A stretch of DNA of 64,000 nucleotides from Candidatus Cloacimonadales bacterium. Lineage in GTDB: Bacteria > Cloacimonadota > Cloacimonadia > Cloacimonadales > DAONDQ01. The notes under the pieces were generated by a model that ran no database searches, was not told the DNA's origin, and saw only the letters and a list, made by a program, of their open reading frames with translations. Numbering within the stretch: position 1 is the stretch's first letter; each line of letters starts with the position of its first letter. Position numbers and translations under genes: made by a program. Shown in pieces: positions 4,066 to 12,720 of the stretch. The stretch is taken from the NCBI GenBank assembly GCA_963662275.1, contig OY759316.1, positions 704,001-768,000 of the forward strand. Reading direction: 5' to 3'.

Positions 4066-4737
4066 TCAGCCTTTCAATTGTCCTTCACATAAACGTTCTT
4101 CAGCTTCCTGGAAGACTTGAAGAATAGTATCTTCTGAGGCTACAGAAATAATTGTCTCCTTGCAGTGTTGATCATGTAATAAACAAGCAAGTTTTGCCAA
4201 TATACGCAGATGTGTGCTGACATTTGGAGAGATGATGGAAAATAGTATATGCACAGGTTTTCCATCTAAAGCGCTATAATCAATCGGATTTTCCAGGAAT
4301 GCTAATGAGATTAAAGGCTGATTAACGTAACCTACCAGAGTACCGCTGGCATGGGGAATAGCAATGCCATTTCCGATTCCGGTGGAGTAAAGGTCTTCCC
4401 GTGCAAGGAACATTTGAAGTATGGGTTTCATTTCGGGAGAGGCAAGCCCTTTAACCAATTTCAAGGCATTATGCAGTACTTCACTTTTTGTGACTCCACC
4501 AACCTGGTAAAAGATTCCACCATGCTGCAGCATATTACTAACTGAAATATCAATATCTTTCTGGGGAAATTCAAAGCTGACTTTCCTGGTAAGTGCCAGT
4601 AGATTATCCACATCAACCAATTCTAAGTATATCTCATTCCCAAGTTTATGTGTATTGAGACGACCGCTGTCAATCCATTGGTAAACTTTCTTTTGTGAAA
4701 CACCTAGTCTGTCTGCTGCTTCTTTCACTGAAATCAC
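4066..4737 (-). CDS. Excisionase-type HTH fused to a PTS EIIA (Ntr/Fru-type) domain
   Basis: N-terminal SVKEAADRLGVSQKKVYQWIDSG; STGIGNGIAIPHA phospho-His motif; GGAGG RBS before the GTG at 4737. Confidence 0.85.
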   Translation of the reverse strand: MISVKEAADRLGVSQKKVYQWIDSGRLNTHKLGNEIYLELVDVDNLLALTRKVSFEFPQKDIDISVSNMLQHGGIFYQVGGVTKSEVLHNALKLVKGLASPEMKPILQMFLAREDLYSTGIGNGIAIPHASGTLVGYVNQPLISLAFLENPIDYSALDGKPVHILFSIISPNVSTHLRILAKLACLLHDQHCKETIISVASEDTILQVFQEAEERLCEGQLKG

Positions 4738-4842
4738 GTGTCTACCTCCGTAGCTGATTAATTTGTTGATTGTCATTTTTAGAATGATTATTTAAAATGT
4801 CAAAGAAAAGAGGTAATTATTCGTAATTAATGCAAAAAGAGG

Positions 4843-4972
4843 TTAGGTGCTAGGTGTTAGGTGCTAGGTGCTAGGTGTTAGGTGCTAGGTACTAGGTGTT
4901 AGGTTTTAGGTACTAGGTGTTAGGTGTTAGGTACTAGGTGTTAGGTGTTAGGTACTAGGTGTTAGGTGCTAG
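4843..4972. repeat. Tandem heptamer array (YTAGGTR), about 18 units
   Basis: ttaggtg/ctaggtg/ctaggta repeated directly. Confidence 0.95.
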
Positions 4973-5244
4973 TGGTTAGAGGATAGAGCTTTTTTATACA
5001 CCCCCTTTAAAATCAGGAGAACGCTAAAGAGAAATAAGCGGAACATGACTGAACTATCAACGAGAAAAGTCTCGATTATGCCTCGGTTATTATATAGGTG
5101 GCTTTCTTGTGACAAGAAAGAGTTAAGAGTGGGGAAAGAGGATGGGGATAAGTTAAAACTGTTAAAACAATTATGGATATATCGATAAAACACTTCAAAG
5201 GAAAATAAATACGTATTGAAAGAATATGAAGTTCGGAGAACGGA

Positions 5245-5284
5245 ATTCTGCTAGCCCAGGAAGGACTTCCTGGGCTAGCAGAAT
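5245..5284. repeat. Perfect 19-bp inverted repeat (REP-like); related copy at 54444-54471
   Basis: ATTCTGCTAGCCCAGGAAG-GA-CTTCCTGGGCTAGCAGAAT. Confidence 0.9.
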
Positions 5285-5366
5285 GACATCCTACGGATTG
5301 AATTTAGGCAGAGTAGGGGCGCATGGCAATACGCCCTTCATTACTTATTCGGGTGTTAAATGAGGA

Positions 5367-5562
5367 TTTGGAGTTCAATTGCCCTTAATCGATTACCAAT
5401 GAATACCTGACTAAAAGGGAAAATGGACTGTATATGAAAGTTAAGAGTTTGGAGTTCAAATGCCCTAAACAAATTATTATTGAATACCTGATTAAAAGGG
5501 CATTCGGACTTCAAACTCGACCTTTCATCGTTGGTAGCGAAAACCTGTTTCTGAGAAGTTCA
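5367..5562 (+). repeat. Dispersed ~130-200 bp element, copy 1 (internally duplicated)
   Basis: TTTGGAGTTCAAnTGCCC...AAAAGGG twice, then GGACTTCA...GGTAGCGAAAACCTGTTT; homologous to 6381-6580 (inverted) and 29335-29465. Confidence 0.85.
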
Positions 5563-5757
5563 AAGCCGATCTTTCATGTAAAGTTCGAATTTCAATTTAT
5601 CTGGATAATTTCCAAAGTCTCGAAGGAAATCTGAACTCTAAACCAGCAGAAGCCAGGGGAGTCCGAAACGCACGGGGTGAGGTGTTCAGGTCTGCTCTTT
5701 AAAACTTAATTAGCTTTAACCAATCGATAAAAAGTCTGCTATACAATTAAGTATGTT

Positions 5758-6000
5758 TCATCTAGGACTCATCTAGGCATTATCTAGGGATCATCTAGAC
5801 TTTGTTAGATTTTCCTAGGAAGATGCTGTATTCATATTCTTTTTCAACTTTTTTTGTATTGGAAGAGGAATCCTTGTGGCACACTCTTTGTACCTAAATG
5901 AGATACCAAACAGGTACTAGCCAGGAACTAGTCAGGTAGTAACCAGGTTCTAAAGTATTTTAGTTTTTGACTAGCTTCTGATTAGTAGGTTATTAGTTTT
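5758..6000. repeat. Two degenerate 11-bp-period arrays (CATCTAGGnnT and GAACTAGTCAG type), the second with an inverted arm
   Basis: catctaggact/catctaggcat/tatctagggat/catctagact; gtactagccag/gaactagtcag/gtagtaaccag followed by ttgactagctt/ctgattagtag. Confidence 0.7.
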
Positions 6001-6093
6001 ACTTGTATTTGTCTTTCAAGGGCGGTTTGAAGAAGCCGGAAAGGGTAGAAGTGACATGAGACCAGAAGCTAGGAACTACGTGCAGATGGATAT

Positions 6094-6351
6094 TCACATT
6101 CTCTTTGCATATGCCTTCCAAGCCGGATGCTTGATCATTTCTGCTTTTGCAGTTTTCTCCGCGATCCCATATTCAAGTTTCATTGTTGTTATCATGTATT
6201 GTGTCATTCCTTTGAGTACATCATCGTAGCTTGTCAAATTACCCACTTGATCAGTACATTGAGTACAATATGGATTCAGCGGATTTTCTCCACCATACTG
6301 TTCAGTTGTTTCCATAGGCATTCCACAGCTTTTGCACGTTTGTGTGACCAT
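6094..6351 (-). CDS. Small zinc-ribbon domain protein
   Basis: CKSCGMPM...NPYCTQC...HPAWK; GAGGAG RBS. Confidence 0.8.
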   Translation of the reverse strand: MVTQTCKSCGMPMETTEQYGGENPLNPYCTQCTDQVGNLTSYDDVLKGMTQYMITTMKLEYGIAEKTAKAEMIKHPAWKAYAKRM

Positions 6352-6380
6352 TAATTCTCCTCGTAATACTGTCAGTTTTT

Positions 6381-6580
6381 AAACTTCCCGGAAGACAGGT
6401 TTTCGCTGCCGATGATGAAAGGTCGATTATGAAGTCCACTTGCCCTTTTAATCATATGCTCATTTAAAATTAGCTAGGGCAAATGAACTCCAAAATCTTA
6501 GCTTTCATGCAAAATCCATTTGTCCTTTTAGTTAAGTATTCAATGATAATTTGTTAAGGGCATTTGAACTCCAAACTCTT
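6381..6580 (-). repeat. Dispersed element, copy 2 (inverted relative to 5367-5562)
   Basis: Reverse complement reads AAGAGTTTGGAGTTCAAATGCCC...GCATGAAAGCTAAGATTTTGGAGTTC...GGCAGCGAAAACCTGTCTT. Confidence 0.85.
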
Positions 6581-6755
6581 GGCAATTATATGAACTCCAA
6601 AGCCATTGTTTTCATACAAATTCATTAATAAGATAACGTAATAAAAACAGAAAACAATAAGCAATTTGCTGATGAAGATCAGATCGGAAATGACAACTCA
6701 CTTTTCGCTGGAATGACAGATCTCTTTCACTTTGTGTATAGTTTTTTTTAATATC

Positions 6756-7697
6756 CTAATCAAAATTCAGAGTTTTTTCGATGGAAACAGTATCTCCATG
6801 ATTCTGTCTTCGTCCCTGGTGCACAATGAGTTCTGCAAGAAGTCCGAGAGAGAAAAGCTGCAAACCGGCAAGAATGAGTAAAACACCCAGGAAGAGTAAA
6901 GGTCTGTTGGTTAGAGGCATACTAAAAAACAACTTGGCAATACTTAAATAGAGGGTAATGAGAAAACCAAGCAAGGTAAGTACAGTACCCAAGCCACCAA
7001 AAAAATATAAGGGGCTGCGAATGTACTGGGTGACAAGTTTCACAGTAAGCAGGTCAAAGAAACCTCTCAGGTAACGTTCAATTCCATATTTTGAAACACC
7101 ATGTTCACGGGAGCGGTGCTGTACAGGAATTTCCCCAACTTTGTAGCCTTTTGCATAAGCTAAAGCTGGAATATATCTATGCATTTCACCATAGACATCG
7201 ATGTTTTTGATTACTTCGCGTTTGTATGCTTTAAAACCACAATTATAATCATGCAGTTTCAATTTGAATGTATTTTGGGTTACTGAGTTGAATAACTTAG
7301 AAGGAATTCGCTTATGAAGAGGGTCGAGTCTCTTTTTCTTCCAGCCGGATACCATATCGTAGCCTTCTTCAATCTTTTTCAGAAAATTTGGTATTTCAAT
7401 AGGATTATCCTGTAAATCTGCATCCATTGTGAATACAATATCACCACTTGCTAATCGAAAACCGGTATTCAATCCGGCAGCCTTACCAAAGTTCTTTCGG
7501 AATTTGATGACTTTGACTTTCGGGTCATTAGAAGCTATTTTGCTTAAAACATCGAAACTTCCATCATTACTGCCATCATCAATAAAAATGATTTCATAAT
7601 CATGACCATTCAGGTTCTGTAGAATTTCTTTGTACAGAATTTCGATTGTGTCTTTTTCATTGAACAATGGAATTACAAAGGATAACAGCATAATCAT
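6756..7697 (-). CDS. GT2 polyprenyl-phosphate glycosyltransferase (ArnC/GtrB/DPM1-like)
   Basis: IDDGSND, RKNFGKAAG, MDADLQD and DYNCGFKAY motifs; two C-terminal TM helices. Confidence 0.88.
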   Translation of the reverse strand: MIMLLSFVIPLFNEKDTIEILYKEILQNLNGHDYEIIFIDDGSNDGSFDVLSKIASNDPKVKVIKFRKNFGKAAGLNTGFRLASGDIVFTMDADLQDNPIEIPNFLKKIEEGYDMVSGWKKKRLDPLHKRIPSKLFNSVTQNTFKLKLHDYNCGFKAYKREVIKNIDVYGEMHRYIPALAYAKGYKVGEIPVQHRSREHGVSKYGIERYLRGFFDLLTVKLVTQYIRSPLYFFGGLGTVLTLLGFLITLYLSIAKLFFSMPLTNRPLLFLGVLLILAGLQLFSLGLLAELIVHQGRRQNHGDTVSIEKTLNFD

Positions 7698-7738
7698 TCC
7701 TCTTTCTAATTTCTTATACATTGAACTGGGAGTTACCC

Positions 7739-7810
7739 AACCGCCTGAAGTCGGCGCTACTAAACTGCCTGAAGACGGAGCTACTAAACCGCCTGAAGAC
7801 GGAGCTACCT
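7739..7810 (-). repeat. Three tandem 24-bp GTAG-type REP-like units; related copy at 60326-60347
   Basis: AACCGCCTGAAGACGGAGCTACTA x3; the reverse complement begins with GTAG before an imperfect hairpin. Confidence 0.85.
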
Positions 7811-7811
7811 T

Positions 7812-8408
7812 TTAAATAAATATAGAAACCAGTGACATCACGATTCCTGCGATTAATGGAATCCTGATATTATCGTCAACCGGAATATTCGAGATTTCGG
7901 ATAAAGTAGTTGCCAGGGCACCAGCTAAAGCGATGAAAGGAGGCAAGAAAAAAAGACCAAAGATAAAGGTACTGGTAAAACAAGCTATTCCTCCTTCAAG
8001 ACTCTTCTTCGTTCCGGCGATCTTTCTTTTACCAAATGGCATCCCGATAATGGCTGCAAAAGTATCTCCAATCGAGAGAAAAGCCATGGAACAAAAACAT
8101 ATTGTCGGACTTAAAAAAGCAACACAAAGAACTGAAGATACCATCATATAGGTAGCACCGGTAAAATCTTTCCGTTCGTGTGAACGAAGCAGCAAACCGA
8201 ATAATTTATGAAAAATCCTTTTCACGGTCGGTCTTTCCAACCTAATCAGCTCGATGATAATAGCAAGAATGCAGAGAACGAGTACAATCCTAAACATCAA
8301 GGTTCGATTATTATGCAGAATATACCTGTAGGTGAGTGGTATCACCATAGAACTCAGGTGTATCGATTTTCGAAGAGTTTCCTTGATGGCTTGAGGGTTA
8401 ATTACCAT
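7812..8408 (-). CDS. CTP-dependent prenol/diacylglycerol kinase family (SEC59/DGK1/VTE5-like)
   Basis: RKSIHL, GDTFAAIIGMPFG, KKSLEG and DDNIRIP motifs. Confidence 0.85.
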   Translation of the reverse strand: MVINPQAIKETLRKSIHLSSMVIPLTYRYILHNNRTLMFRIVLVLCILAIIIELIRLERPTVKRIFHKLFGLLLRSHERKDFTGATYMMVSSVLCVAFLSPTICFCSMAFLSIGDTFAAIIGMPFGKRKIAGTKKSLEGGIACFTSTFIFGLFFLPPFIALAGALATTLSEISNIPVDDNIRIPLIAGIVMSLVSIFI

Positions 8409-8490
8409 GAGCCGTCCTCTTTAATGAATCATCTTCGCAGCTCCGGGTTTAGCCGGTTGATATATGGATAAAAACATGAACCATTCCTTA

Positions 8491-9684
8491 TCAATGAATC
8501 ATATCAGTTAAATACGATTTCGCAATTTTCGCAAACAGTAAAGGATGATTCTTCAGTATTGAGAAGAATAATGCCTTTAAGGAGAGACTTTGTATCGGTA
8601 TTTTAGCAATTTCATGAAACAATTCATTCATTCTCTTATCAGTCGCAGAGTAAAGTTTATTTTTTAGAATATAGGCGATTTCCTGTTTCTTTCTAAATTG
8701 TGCATCCCATGCCGATTGATAAGAAGAAAGGAATTTACGGCTGTAATCTTTTTGTTTGATTGCTTTTGCACCAATCTCTCCAGCCATCTTTCCTGCATGC
8801 ATGGCATATTCAATACCTCCGCCTGTGAGCGGATTTGTCTGCCGGGCAGCATCTCCTACAAGCATCACCTGATCATGATAGATCTTTGATAGTGAGACAG
8901 CAATCGGTACTCCTCCTGCAATAAATGAAGAAGCACTACTGCCGGGGAAATGTGTTCCTATGAATGAATCCAGATATTCTTTTGCCGTTTTATCTGTTTT
9001 ACGGGCTGCAACCAAACCCAGTCCAACGTTTGCTTGTGATTTGGATTTGGGAAAAACCCAGGCATAACCTCCAGGGGCAATTTCGTTCCCGAAATACACC
9101 GCACAGCGGTTATGAGGAATATCCAGATTTTCCAATCGATATTGGACACAGGAATCAATATCCATTAATGCCAGGTTAGTATTCAAGCCAAACCAGCGCC
9201 CGACTCTAGATTCAACACCATCAGCACCTATCACAATATAGCATTTCACGATATGAATTTCATCAAAAATCCTATAGGTCACTTCTATCTTAGAATCATT
9301 ACTATACATTGAATTGATTACGTCTGCTTTAGTCAGCAGTTCTGCACCAGCAGTGATCGCCAATTGAGCGATATAATTATCAAAACGTGTCCGATCCAGG
9401 ACAAAACCCACTTCCGGGCTGATCATTTCGACCATGGTATTATCCGGTGAATATATATTGACTCCTGATATGGCGCAGCATTTCATTTCATCAGGGATAT
9501 CCAGAATGTCAGACAGATTAGATTGAAATACACCTTCTGCACATCTTACAGGAATTCCAATCGTACGATCTCTTTCCAATACCAGTACCCTCACTCCGTT
9601 TTGAGCTGCATACAATGCAGTAGTTAAACCGGCAGGTCCACCGCCAATAATTACGATATCGTAGAAATCAGAACGTTCTTTCAT
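8491..9684 (-). CDS. Geranylgeranyl reductase family FAD oxidoreductase (DGGGPL-reductase-like)
   Basis: GGGPAG, VRCAEG, GADG, APGGYAWVFPK and GDAARQTNPLTGGGI motifs. Confidence 0.88.
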   Translation of the reverse strand: MKERSDFYDIVIIGGGPAGLTTALYAAQNGVRVLVLERDRTIGIPVRCAEGVFQSNLSDILDIPDEMKCCAISGVNIYSPDNTMVEMISPEVGFVLDRTRFDNYIAQLAITAGAELLTKADVINSMYSNDSKIEVTYRIFDEIHIVKCYIVIGADGVESRVGRWFGLNTNLALMDIDSCVQYRLENLDIPHNRCAVYFGNEIAPGGYAWVFPKSKSQANVGLGLVAARKTDKTAKEYLDSFIGTHFPGSSASSFIAGGVPIAVSLSKIYHDQVMLVGDAARQTNPLTGGGIEYAMHAGKMAGEIGAKAIKQKDYSRKFLSSYQSAWDAQFRKKQEIAYILKNKLYSATDKRMNELFHEIAKIPIQSLSLKALFFSILKNHPLLFAKIAKSYLTDMIH

Positions 9685-9750
9685 TGGTTTCTAACTCCCT
9701 AACCCCTTCTTGACAAGAGAGCGGGGAAAAGATTCAGTAAGATCGGAATC

Positions 9751-9942
9751 TTACTCCACATTATTCAGAGATTCGGCTTTTTGCTCTACAGCACCAATTG
9801 GACAGGTCTTAACACAGTTCAAACAATTGGTACATTTTGCGGGATTGAAATCTACAAGATTCTCACGAAGAATAAGGGCATCTGCCGGGCATACACTGAT
9901 GCATGCACCGCATAGATCACAAATTGTAGGGTTTATTATCAT
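9751..9942 (-). CDS. 2x[4Fe-4S] ferredoxin
   Basis: CDLCGACISVCP and CTNCLNCVKTCP. Confidence 0.9.
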   Translation of the reverse strand: MIINPTICDLCGACISVCPADALILRENLVDFNPAKCTNCLNCVKTCPIGAVEQKAESLNNVE

Positions 9943-11500
9943 CTTTCAAAGCTAAGCGATAGTCAATAATTCTAAGTGTATGATGCGATTTCCATTGTAC
10001 CAGGAGATCATAATGAAGACCATCAGTAATGGGTTTTGTTTCATATTCAAGAGTAAAACAAAGCAGGTTATTTGGAACTAATACATTCCTTAATAGTAGT
10101 ATTGGTTCGGTATTTCCCATTCCATAAGGTTGTAACAGATTTAGTTTATCCCACAATTCATCGGTGAAATCCTCTAACATGATAGGACAGGAAATTTGAA
10201 TACTTTGACCTTCTAATATTTGATGTTCATTTAAGTGAAGAAATTCCGTAAATTTCTCAATAAATAAGTAGATTTCTTCTGGTTTCATCGTAAATCCAGC
10301 AGCTTTCACATGTCCACCATACTGGATGAGATGCTCTTCACAATAGCGGAATGCATCCACCATATTGAAACCTTCTGAACATCTGCCTTCACAGACGATC
10401 ACATCCTGTTTATTCTTTAAGAATATGGCGGGAACATGAAGCTTATTTGTGACTTGACTGGCAGCCATTCCAAGTAAGGAATATGGAATTTTATCCGTAT
10501 TATCATAATAAATAAAACCAGGACCATCATGATCTTCAATGAGGGAAACAACAAAGTTCTGAATATTCCGTACCTGGCTTTCATGTTCAGTTCTAATCGC
10601 ATCCAGATTCCTAAAATAATCATTCTTTTCCGCTCCGGAAGCTAAGAGAAATTGCATGATCAGATGATTTCCACCTTCCTGCCGTCCATTCGAGAAGAGT
10701 TTCGCAATATTATTCAGAAAATTCATTTTTTCACAATATGTATATAGGTCATTCGTGAAATTCAAAAGAAAATCAAAGCTGTCATCATGCATTTGATAAA
10801 TGTTGTCTAAGGCATAACGGACTAGAATGCGATTCACTCCATCAATCGGTACTTTATCTGCCACCGAACCAATGGCAGTCCATATATAATAACAGCGAGG
10901 GACATCAATCTTCAACATCTTTGCTAAATAACGGATGATCAATAATGTGAGACCAACACCTGCCGGCATTTTATAAGGATATTTATCGTCTGTCCTTTTA
11001 GGATTCACAACCGCATACGCTTTAGGTAATTGATCATTGTAGGTCAGGTGATGATCTGTGATTATCACATCACATCCCATTTGATTTAACTTCTCCACAC
11101 CGTCGAAAGCCACTATACCATTATCAACGGTTACTACCAGCGTATATTTCCCTTGTTCTACAAATTGCAGGAAACTCTCTTGTATGCCATGAGATTCTGT
11201 CATTCGATTGGGAACAAAATAATGATGATTTTGAAATCCGCATTTATCAAGAAAATCATAGAGAATATAGGTGCTGGTTAATCCATCGGCATCATCATGA
11301 CCGAAGATTACGATCTTTTCCTTACGATATAAGCCATTGATGATACGTTGTGCAGCCATATCAATATCTGAAAGGAAAGCCTCATCGGGAAGTTGCTCCA
11401 AACCTGCCCGTAATTGTTGGACAGTTAGATTCTTTTGGATCAGAATCTGATCGAATATAGGGAGTTTAGACTTTTCGGGAAGAACCCATTTCAGGTTCAT
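9917..11500 (-). CDS. recJ: RecJ-like DHH-family exonuclease
   Basis: GHDDADGLTS, TVDNG, TDHH, GGHVKAAG and LQPYGMGN motifs. Confidence 0.8.
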   Translation of the reverse strand: MNLKWVLPEKSKLPIFDQILIQKNLTVQQLRAGLEQLPDEAFLSDIDMAAQRIINGLYRKEKIVIFGHDDADGLTSTYILYDFLDKCGFQNHHYFVPNRMTESHGIQESFLQFVEQGKYTLVVTVDNGIVAFDGVEKLNQMGCDVIITDHHLTYNDQLPKAYAVVNPKRTDDKYPYKMPAGVGLTLLIIRYLAKMLKIDVPRCYYIWTAIGSVADKVPIDGVNRILVRYALDNIYQMHDDSFDFLLNFTNDLYTYCEKMNFLNNIAKLFSNGRQEGGNHLIMQFLLASGAEKNDYFRNLDAIRTEHESQVRNIQNFVVSLIEDHDGPGFIYYDNTDKIPYSLLGMAASQVTNKLHVPAIFLKNKQDVIVCEGRCSEGFNMVDAFRYCEEHLIQYGGHVKAAGFTMKPEEIYLFIEKFTEFLHLNEHQILEGQSIQISCPIMLEDFTDELWDKLNLLQPYGMGNTEPILLLRNVLVPNNLLCFTLEYETKPITDGLHYDLLVQWKSHHTLRIIDYRLALKDDNKPYNL

Positions 11501-12720
11501 TATCGAATTTCCTCAACTTTAGGGATTTCACGGGGAGCAGTTCGTCTTTGTTCCTGTTTGAAAATATCAAAACCTGTAATCCCAAAAAGAAACATTAGAG
11601 AACTTTCTTGAACGGCGTTCTTATTTGAATCTCCACGCATCAAGTATTGAAATCCAAGATCAATGCGATTTTCCGGATTCTTCAAAGGTAAGGAGAAACC
11701 AATGGATGCACCTTTTTCATCAATACTGGCATTATTTTTTTGGAAAGGAAGCTTTCTCCATGAAATGCCTCCCCGCAAGGGAAGCCTGCGAAAGAATTTA
11801 TCTGCGTTTTGATTTGCATCATAAGCAATACCAATACCAACTTTCCAGCTATCTTCAGTATTCTCAGGATTATCAACTGCTTTCCACATATCATAATGGA
11901 CATCGTATGAAGTACGTAATACATCGGAATGATTGAATGTCATTCCCAATCCAAAACGATTGGGCAGGTTATAATGAGATGTTCCTTGATTCTCTGTTGA
12001 GGATAGAGTTTTGTATATTATTTCACCTTTCAGTTTTGAAGCTGAAGTATAGGTAAAAGCTGTTGAAAAACGATCCGTTTTCTTCATGATACCAATGGAA
12101 ATACCTCCATTAGAATAAGATTTTGTCATGCTATAGTATGTATTAAAAGGACTACTCCCTGAATCTTGGGAAATCGCACGATTCTCATGTCCGAGGTAAT
12201 AATTGATGGCTACACCAAAATCAACTAATTTGAAAGGATAGGAATACATAAGATCAACGCGATATAAATAAGAATCAACAGAATTATATTCAGTGAAGTG
12301 AATAGAAGATAAAGTATCGGTACTTTGATCCTTCACTACTCCTGAAGAAAGAGATTGGAATTGAAATCCTAACTTATGACTTGCAATTGGAATAGCCATA
12401 TTAAAATAAGGAAAATCCAGAGAATTATCTGTATATTTGGGATGAGATTTATCTTCATACCAAGTATCACCTGTCATGATTCCTGTCGAAAAAACAGCAT
12501 TTTTAATTCTTGAAATAAGTGCAGGATTCCCAAAACCGGTATTTAATCTATAAGAATCAGCCATTCCAGTATCACCCATACTGAAGCCATAGATATCATT
12601 GCCATAATACTGGTTGGGCAATCCCTGGAAGGAAAAGATTGAGTTCCCTGCCCATACGGGAACTATACTAATAAGTAATATAAATATGATTCCTACAAAT
12701 CTCTGTGTGGAAAGAGTCAT
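11500..12720 (-). CDS. Probable outer-membrane beta-barrel protein (FadL/OmpP1-like)
   Basis: Signal peptide, GNPA motif, alternating aromatic beta-strand pattern; its stop overlaps the recJ start (TAATG). Confidence 0.55.
   Translation of the reverse strand: MTLSTQRFVGIIFILLISIVPVWAGNSIFSFQGLPNQYYGNDIYGFSMGDTGMADSYRLNTGFGNPALISRIKNAVFSTGIMTGDTWYEDKSHPKYTDNSLDFPYFNMAIPIASHKLGFQFQSLSSGVVKDQSTDTLSSIHFTEYNSVDSYLYRVDLMYSYPFKLVDFGVAINYYLGHENRAISQDSGSSPFNTYYSMTKSYSNGGISIGIMKKTDRFSTAFTYTSASKLKGEIIYKTLSSTENQGTSHYNLPNRFGLGMTFNHSDVLRTSYDVHYDMWKAVDNPENTEDSWKVGIGIAYDANQNADKFFRRLPLRGGISWRKLPFQKNNASIDEKGASIGFSLPLKNPENRIDLGFQYLMRGDSNKNAVQESSLMFLFGITGFDIFKQEQRRTAPREIPKVEEIR

Follow-up and report, generated by a model that had tools for sequence, protein, structure and literature searches.

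Ferredoxin and geranylgeranyl reductase genes retained in a Cloacimonadota genome that lacks the ether-lipid synthase cassette

We examined a 64,000-nucleotide stretch of the genome of a Candidatus Cloacimonadales bacterium (contig OY759316.1, positions 704,001 to 768,000; the whole of this stretch is referred to as the window), which carries adjacent genes for a small ferredoxin (Fd) and an FAD-dependent geranylgeranyl reductase (GGR) of the archaeal, ferredoxin-linked type. What is new here is that, in a complete genome, the ether-lipid cassette of relatives, encoding geranylgeranylglyceryl phosphate (GGGP) synthase (GGGPS, or PcrB) and digeranylgeranylglyceryl phosphate (DGGGP) synthase (DGGGPS, of the UbiA family), is demonstrably missing while the Fd-GGR pair is retained. 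We give an even chance to the overall reading that the surrounding genes form a vertically inherited string of two independent units, in which Fd-GGR acts in this organism on an isoprenoid other than an ether lipid.

The names that the closest homologues carry in public sources assign the window to Cloacimonadota. The host genome is a single contig of 4.38 Mb, rated 99.97% complete. The two genes belong to a string of six, listed here in the order of transcription with the length of each open reading frame (ORF):

11500..12720, minus strand: FadL/TodX-like outer-membrane beta-barrel protein, BamG-like (OMP), 406 aa; first gene of the conserved string
9917..11500, minus strand: RecJ-like DHH single-strand exonuclease (RecJ), 527 aa
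9751..9942, minus strand: 2x[4Fe-4S] ferredoxin (Fd), 63 aa; putative electron donor of the GGR
8491..9684, minus strand: FAD-dependent geranylgeranyl reductase (GGR), archaeal ferredoxin-linked type, 397 aa
7812..8408, minus strand: small membrane protein of the CdsA/SEC59/VTE5 superfamily ('kinase'), 198 aa; probable CTP-dependent prenol (polyprenol) kinase
6756..7721, minus strand: family 2 glycosyltransferase (GT2), polyprenyl-phosphate type (ArnC/GtrB/DPM1-like), 321 aa

These co-oriented ORFs are present as originally predicted, with overlaps of 1 nt between OMP and RecJ and 26 nt between RecJ and Fd. The remaining genes are separated by 66 nt (Fd-GGR), 82 nt (GGR-kinase) and 90 nt (kinase-GT2), and a consensus scan found no terminator-like site in any of these three gaps. 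The best promoter-like site on the minus strand, at 12773-12746 (10/12 matches), is just 5' of OMP, although such a scan is weak evidence. The arrangement of the six genes is not due to chance.

The GGR scores 228.3 bits against TIGR02032 (GG-red-SF), over the curated cut-off of 158.8, and 91.2 bits against Pfam GGR_cat, where the cut-off is 27. Its best NCBIfam model is that of the Thermoplasmatales digeranylgeranylglycerophospholipid (DGGGPL) reductase (NF041160, 262 bits, under the cut-off of 780), and it also falls below two other DGGGPL-reductase equivalogs (NF041080, 155.7 versus a cut-off of 580; NF041385, 115 versus 700). The scores for MenJ (85 bits, cut-off 700) and BchP/ChlP (152 bits, cut-off 343.3) are lower than that of the best DGGGPL-reductase model. 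The original prediction of an archaeal lipid-reductase type is therefore upheld by these scores and by the best structural match, the type being judged from scores against NCBIfam models. That match, the closest solved relative, is the DGGGPL reductase of T. acidophilum (PDB 3oz2, E 6.3e-67, residues 6-384), which shares the FAD fold, the cysteine motif and PxxYxWxFP with the window GGR. However, the window protein stays under the cut-off of the Thermoplasmatales equivalog. The reducer of the T. acidophilum enzyme is given as NADP in the review PMC10821996. The translation contains IIGGGPAG (GxGxxG, FAD), VRCAEGV (the RCAEG cysteine), PGGYAWVFP (PxxYxWxFP) and LVGDAA (LxGD), these motif names being taken from the same review; the CAEG and PGGYAWxFP motifs had been pointed out at the outset. 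The core motif positions are invariant in our alignment of homologues (A1).

The Fd matches Fer4 families (Fer4_10, 53.2 bits), and its translation has two CxxCxxCxxxCP motifs. Our survey of GGR loci returned 601 pattern matches, of which 551 were confirmed, and the best 80 loci were used (33 from Cloacimonadota and 47 from other groups). An Fd homologue is found directly upstream of GGR in 76 of these best 80 loci, 133-279 nt upstream of the GGR match, and the loci with Fd-GGR include Archaeoglobaceae, KSB1, Kryptoniota, Ignavibacteriota, Bacteroidota, Calditrichota and others. The four loci without an upstream Fd are L042, in which GGR begins at the contig end, L052, L064 and L069. Additionally, seven of the 120 homologues listed are Fd-GGR fusions of 463-471 aa with Fer4 domains. 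In all five fusions that were aligned (P0005, P0049, P0068, P0093 and P0101) the Fd is fused to the N-terminus of the GGR, and in a genome of the same genus (G123) one 467-aa ORF matches both proteins in frame. Because the Fd is upstream in so many loci and occurs fused to the GGR, the two are evidently a true functional pair, and the proposal of ferredoxin as the partner of this GGR gains in strength.

A precedent is the GGR of M. acetivorans, which is reported to need the ferredoxin encoded at its locus as the specific in vivo reductant (Isobe et al. 2014, as cited in the review PMC10821996). There, as in the window, a gene for a small 4Fe-4S ferredoxin lies beside that of an FAD-dependent GGR (66 nt away in the window). 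In contrast, the window host is a bacterium without the pathway to the DGGGP substrate, and its Fd-GGR electron transfer is predicted from the gene arrangement and the fusions. From what is known of the family, the reduced 2x[4Fe-4S] ferredoxin would hand electrons to the FAD of the GGR, the cysteine of RCAEG and the PGGYxWxFP pocket would act on the prenyl chain, and the pair, like those of Methanosarcina and Archaeoglobus, would saturate C=C bonds in isoprenoid chains.

Elsewhere, this genome encodes a second member of the GGR family, a divergent paralogue (C1:1286133-1287413; L113 5133-6413) with 188 bits against TIGR02032 and 44.9 bits against GGR_cat. On one side of it is the gene for an FAD-dependent protein of 547 aa and on the other that for an MprF-like lysyl-phosphatidylglycerol synthase of 850 aa, a membrane-lipid context.

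Ether-lipid genes in the phylum and in this genome

We sampled 151 Cloacimonadota genomes, which are labelled G with a number (G000 is this genome, its contig C1) and grouped into families (f; f1 is the family of this genome) and genera (g; g11, g20 and g30 belong to f6). PcrB/GGGPS is above the cut-off in 66 of them, with strong matches (E<1e-39) in 65, while the UbiA family is found in 78 and a second prenyl synthase, IDS2, in all 151. The earlier statement that some Cloacimonadota encode GGGP and DGGGP synthases thus holds: part of the phylum has them. When the genome lists were compared by hand, 63 of the 65 genomes with strong PcrB also had GGR, and IDS2, UbiA and PcrB are adjacent in many genomes. 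Outside the phylum, the neighbouring ORFs of the 47 GGR loci were clustered and one representative of each cluster was scanned. A UbiA-family gene lies just upstream of GGR in 18 of these loci and a CDP-alcohol phosphatidyltransferase gene just downstream in 17. In most of the phylum, then, GGR goes with DGGGPS and GGGPS, and so it would serve archaeal-type ether lipids there.

Archaeal-type GGRs in Cloacimonetes are already in print. The main text of Villanueva et al. (PMC7852524) describes a potential for archaeal-type ether lipids in Ca. Cloacimonetes, GGRs related to those of Euryarchaeota, two polyprenyl synthases, and GGGPS, DGGGPS and a polyprenyl synthase on one scaffold; the word 'ferredoxin' appears in it once, in the title of a reference. 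A preprint (10.1101/2021.10.08.463351) reports that GGGPS and DGGGPS are patchily distributed in the phylum. The published set comes from the same phylum and has the IDS2-UbiA-PcrB arrangement that we found in relatives, but the genome of the window has neither GGGPS nor DGGGPS. In the literature on Cloacimonadota GGR and GGGP and on bacterial GGR, taking the main text alone of PMC7852524, we found no description of a GGR kept without GGGPS and DGGGPS, of bacterial Fd-GGR fusions, or of the two-cassette pattern described below.

Profile searches with hidden Markov models (HMMs) found no PcrB/GGGPS, no UbiA-family protein and no CarS in the complete genome, and the same profiles matched 7, 14 and 6, respectively, of 14 named control genomes. 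Similarly, tblastn queries taken from four relatives, namely their PcrB and UbiA proteins, gave no match in this genome. The site that the missing genes occupy in relatives can be located. Relatives have the order IDS2-UbiA-PcrB-CpsB/CapC-like, while in this genome 81 nt separate IDS2 (C1:3163942-3164823) from the CpsB-like gene that comes next (locus L112). Among ten further loci, UbiA-PcrB lies between IDS2 and CpsB in both PcrB-positive ones, and IDS2 is directly followed by CpsB in all eight PcrB-negative ones, including G123, whose IDS2 is 96% identical.

The phylum therefore has two two-gene cassettes, UbiA-PcrB and Fd-GGR, at two fixed sites, and usually both are present or both are absent. 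This genome has only the Fd-GGR cassette. It is one of 13 among the 76 GGR-positive genomes that have no strong PcrB (G000, G123, six of g20, G085, G063, G128, G012 and G149). The PcrB matches of G012 and G149 are weak and may represent a paralogue, and a UbiA-family gene is absent altogether from ten of the 13.

Because PcrB, the UbiA family and CarS are absent and the cassette is missing from its fixed site, a role in ether-lipid synthesis is excluded in this genome; since there is no UbiA-family gene, there is also no MenA and no chlorophyll synthase. The exclusion of ether-lipid, menaquinone and chlorophyll roles is well supported, and the suggestion that the window genes saturate ether-linked lipids was not borne out. 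The occurrence of archaeal-type lipid genes in the FCB group of bacteria has been published as a case for bridging the lipid divide. In this genome the gene set is, as it were, dissected by nature: the cassette that forms the ether bonds is gone, and the ferredoxin-reductase cassette stays under constraint.

Two side observations concern this site and the UbiA family. In L112 (C1:3158000-3170000) IDS2 heads a string found across the phylum, IDS2-[UbiA-PcrB]-CpsB/CapC-like phosphatase-NAD epimerase-methyltransferase-LPG_synthase_TM-MoxR-LVIVD, and this string may connect IDS2 with a pathway for a glycolipid or a carrier; its methyltransferase was not detected in three f6 loci of g20 and g30. 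A second UbiA-family type occurs in some GGGPS-less Cloacimonadota (G123, C13:8877-9527, and several f3 genomes) and is absent from this genome. Its frames are about 330 aa long and match profile positions 19-232 with about 90-95 bits.

Two gene units within one string

Synteny in relatives, which the original prediction would lead one to expect, is evident. A kinase homologue lies downstream of GGR in 31 of the 33 Cloacimonadota loci and a GT2 homologue in 29, with the order GGR-kinase-GT2 in 28. One contig (L046) ends at GGR and accounts for one of the two loci without kinase and one of the four without GT2. In three others (L040, L042 and L058) GGR and kinase occur without a detectable GT2 in the downstream sequence covered. 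Neither gene has a homologue (E<=1e-5) in the 47 GGR loci outside Cloacimonadota. Similar clusters were seen in other phyla, as leads only.

The genes do not, however, form a single module of either six or four genes, as had been proposed. The kinase is found in 140 of the 151 phylum genomes and GGR (E<=1e-40) in 76. All 69 genomes of family f3 have the kinase, four have GGR and none has PcrB. Conversely, all six genomes of genus g20 have GGR and none has the kinase, PcrB or UbiA; with g30, seven genomes have GGR without the kinase. The string was mapped in 14 loci:

7 of 14 (five f3, two f6 g11): OMP-RecJ-kinase-GT2
3 of 14 (f6 g20/g30): OMP-RecJ-Fd-GGR-GT2
2 of 14 (f12): kinase-GT2 alone
2 of 14 (G123, G063): full or nearly full string

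The kinase gene adjoins GT2 in all nine mapped loci that have it. The string OMP-RecJ-[Fd-GGR]-[kinase]-GT2 is thus conserved across Cloacimonadota and vertically inherited, and it holds two independent two-gene units, a conclusion that is well supported.

OMP and RecJ are unrelated neighbours outside the lipid function, and in the locus maps they stand upstream whether or not a relative has Fd-GGR. The OMP matches Pfam Toluene_X (FadL) with 35.9 bits and NCBIfam BamG with 141 bits, under the cut-off of 250. The RecJ-like protein has DHH, DHHA1 and RecJ_OB domains and scores 306 bits against TIGR00644, under the cut-off of 396.9.

The 198-aa protein is probably a CTP-dependent prenol (polyprenol) kinase, as suggested by its sequence and that of its homologues. 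Its own match to PF01148 is weak (14.8 bits, under the cut-off of 24, E 0.026), and 18 of 25 aligned members of its family match PF01148 at E<=0.1, the best with 4.7e-6. The family alignment keeps a GDxxAAxxGxxxGK stretch and a C-terminal DDN motif, and homologues carry public names such as phytol kinase, dolichol kinase and SEC59/DGK1/VTE5 family protein. An AlphaFold model has eight helices with a predicted local distance difference test (pLDDT) score of 92. The nearest solved fold by Foldseek is CdsA (4q2g, probability 0.98 but E 0.05, a weak match at the superfamily level only), and a profile of the family likewise matches CdsA alone in the PDB (E 0.015, again at the level of the superfamily). 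The dolichol kinase SEC59/DOLK, the phytol kinase VTE5 and DGK1 are CTP-dependent kinases related to CdsA. The window protein resembles them in its weak PF01148 similarity, the names of its homologues and the nearest solved fold, that of CdsA; however, it is much shorter, and its Pfam score is under the cut-off. Because a canonical CdsA (205.5 bits) is encoded elsewhere in the genome, adjoining UppS, the 198-aa protein is not the housekeeping enzyme. We also considered it as the missing CDP-archaeol synthase and ruled this out, as it is present in all 69 f3 genomes, which have no GGGPS.

The GT2 scores 125.9 bits against PF00535 and aligns over nearly its full length with solved ArnC (E 6e-46, residues 11-299), GtrB sll0501 (4e-30) and DPMS (4e-23). 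Like the ArnC/GtrB/DPM1 enzymes, it has a GT-A domain ahead of hydrophobic helices at the C-terminus. However, it is under every equivalog cut-off (ArnC, 184.6 versus 529; PgfS, 165.4 versus 500; AglJ, 83.6 versus 325) and so belongs to no specific equivalog that would indicate its sugar. In the mechanism that we propose for this unit, the kinase-like membrane protein would make or recycle polyprenyl phosphate using CTP, and the GT2 would then load a sugar on it to give a lipid-phosphate-sugar donor for the envelope.

Candidate roles of the reductase

The detected isoprenoid inventory of this genome consists of two short-chain trans-prenyl synthases and one UppS. Searches of the genome found no squalene/phytoene synthase (SQS_PSY) and no squalene-hopene cyclase. 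The terpene synthase profile PF19086 matched no control genome and is uninformative. The elimination covers only the families searched. Since only the two trans-prenyl synthases and UppS were detected, geranylgeranyl diphosphate (GGPP), the bactoprenol chain built from it, or both would be the likeliest substrate of the GGR, an assignment to which we give somewhat less than even odds. The GGR would then saturate in part the carrier lipid which the kinase and GT2 also handle, the three not forming an obligate pathway.

A more specific role is possible and decidedly tentative. Lineages without DGGGPS and GGGPS (the family of this genome, g20, g30 and g25) may keep Fd-GGR to saturate GGPP-primed bactoprenol, giving a partly saturated, dolichol-like carrier that is handled by the neighbouring kinase and GT2. 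The basis of this idea is the elimination of other substrates and an adjacency inherited within one phylum. There is a precedent in Haloferax volcanii, in which a lipid GGR saturates a polyprenyl-phosphate sugar carrier (Naparstek et al. 2012, as cited in PMC10821996 and PMC5088576), and archaeal GGR is described as also reducing dolichol-phosphate units in passages of the same two papers. However, that enzyme is archaeal. The passages describe no bacterial case, and they ascribe partly saturated polyprenyl-phosphate carriers to archaea and eukaryotes only.

Several points weigh against GGR acting on such a carrier. Bacterial polyprenols are described as fully unsaturated (a passage in PMC5088576). 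The substrate is assigned solely by elimination among the searched families, and the present sequence and fold data do not distinguish a kinase from a cytidylyltransferase. Genus g20 keeps GGR without the kinase, which indicates that GGR is independent of it, and f3 keeps the kinase, GT2, IDS2 and UppS without GGR, which indicates that saturation is dispensable for the carrier. Finally, the GGRs of GGGPS-less lineages lie on long branches and have changed at 5 (f1), 16 (f6) and 12 (g25) of 61 conserved columns.

We compared the divergence of these GGRs by their mean identity to the main Cloacimonadota clade and by the number of changes in 61 columns, each at least 95% conserved among 78 reference GGRs:

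f1 as a whole: 5/61 columns changed, mean identity 0.41
f6: 16/61 columns changed, mean identity 0.35
g25: 12/61 columns changed, mean identity 0.34
Archaeoglobaceae: part of the reference set for the conserved columns, mean identity 0.43

In the GGR of this genome itself, 59 of the 61 columns and every core motif are unchanged. The GGRs of f1 are 100, 75, 73 and 61% identical to it, and the three that were aligned (P0001, P0002 and P0004) keep all 66 invariant positions of A1; P0003, the homologue with 73% identity, was left out of that alignment. In g20 the ratio of nonsynonymous to synonymous substitution rates (dN/dS) of GGR is 0.066-0.148 in all 15 pairs, compared with 0.03-0.10 for RecJ and OMP, although dS is saturated (>1) in all g20 pairs and the ratios are rough; dS was undefined for several pairs of Fd, GT2 and RecJ. 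In a quick tree, a group of 78 sequences (support 92) holding the main Cloacimonadota clade, Archaeoglobaceae and other FCB sequences excludes both g25 and the grouping of f1 with f6 (support 96). Support in this tree is from the Shimodaira-Hasegawa-like approximate likelihood ratio test (SH-aLRT) only, and g25 and the paralogue outgroup may attract each other as long branches. The orphan GGRs thus appear constrained but divergent, and both a new substrate and relaxed constraint fit this pattern.

In a rival reading, Fd-GGR is a remnant with little or no function that has outlasted the ether-lipid synthases and is itself being lost, as in f3. GGR is indeed gone from most GGGPS-less genomes (65/69 in f3 and both in g11), it has long branches in the GGGPS-less lineages of the quick tree, and the f6 and g25 sequences are farther from the main Cloacimonadota clade than are archaeal GGRs. 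However, a remnant would not be expected to keep an intact ORF with the conserved columns and motifs described above, to keep its Fd, fused in frame in G123, to hold every invariant position in the aligned f1 proteins down to 61% identity, or to have a dN/dS of about 0.1 in all g20 pairs, rough as these ratios are. We regard this explanation as improbable.

We judge equally improbable an obligate bacterial dolichol pathway, the second option of the original prediction, in which the polyprenol saturated by GGR is the very substrate that the kinase phosphorylates and the GT2 then glycosylates. The gaps of 66-90 nt in this stretch without a terminator-like site, the order conserved in most Cloacimonadota loci and the reduction of dolichol-phosphate units by archaeal GGR (PMC5088576 and PMC10821996) would all suit such a pathway. 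In contrast, kinase and GT2 remain adjacent where GGR is absent, as in f3, and the seven genomes of g20 and g30 have GGR without the kinase. Additionally, an adjacency inherited within one phylum counts as one event, and the unrelated RecJ and OMP genes are conserved in the same string.

Ether lipids might still be saturated in this organism if it took them up from neighbouring archaea or made them with non-homologous synthases that escape recognition. DGGGPS and GGGPS are the usual partners of GGR orthologues, and IDS2, the head of the ether-lipid operon in relatives, is retained. However, no PcrB or UbiA was found by HMM or tblastn and no CarS by HMM in a genome that is 99.97% complete, and the fixed site of the cassette does not contain it. 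We know of no analogue of the GGGPS and DGGGPS enzymes. Taken together, this makes hidden ether lipids very improbable. A MenJ-like menaquinone reductase or a BchP/ChlP-like reductase has a negligible chance, as the family-level similarity (85 and 152 bits) is weak, far under both cut-offs and below the best DGGGPL-reductase score, and the genome has no UbiA-family gene to supply MenA or chlorophyll synthase.

If GGR has a second substrate, most plausibly a polyprenyl carrier, another supposed difference between bacteria and archaea, unsaturated bactoprenol as against saturated dolichol, would soften, and one small gene pair would allow a test of what else lipid GGRs reduce. Should the pair instead be a remnant, the locus documents the order in which the pathway was dismantled.

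Repeats and intergenic features near the locus

Several features lie downstream of the string in the window. A tandem array of a 7-nt unit (TAGGTGC-like) is found at 4844-4972, beside a PtsN-like gene; it is intergenic and consists of 6.1 copies of a 21-nt super-unit with 95% matches. A hairpin at 5234-5295 has 30-nt arms that are 83% complementary and a 2-nt loop, and is probably a repetitive extragenic palindromic (REP)-like element or a terminator. An Rfam scan of positions 4700-6800 gave two sub-threshold matches to miRNA families, one of them on this hairpin, which we take as chance.

In many relatives a UGPase gene follows GT2. In this genome that gene is elsewhere (C1:425382-426728), and no UGPase remnant was found downstream of GT2 in the window. 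Directly downstream of GT2, where relatives have UGPase, there are two repeat blocks with an 81-nt period (5367-5548 and 6395-6599). These are inverted arms, 80-82% complementary over pieces of 77-101 nt, and they flank about 0.85-1.0 kb in which the sole ORF encodes an 85-aa zinc-ribbon protein (6094-6351). They may mark a past rearrangement or a small mobile element.

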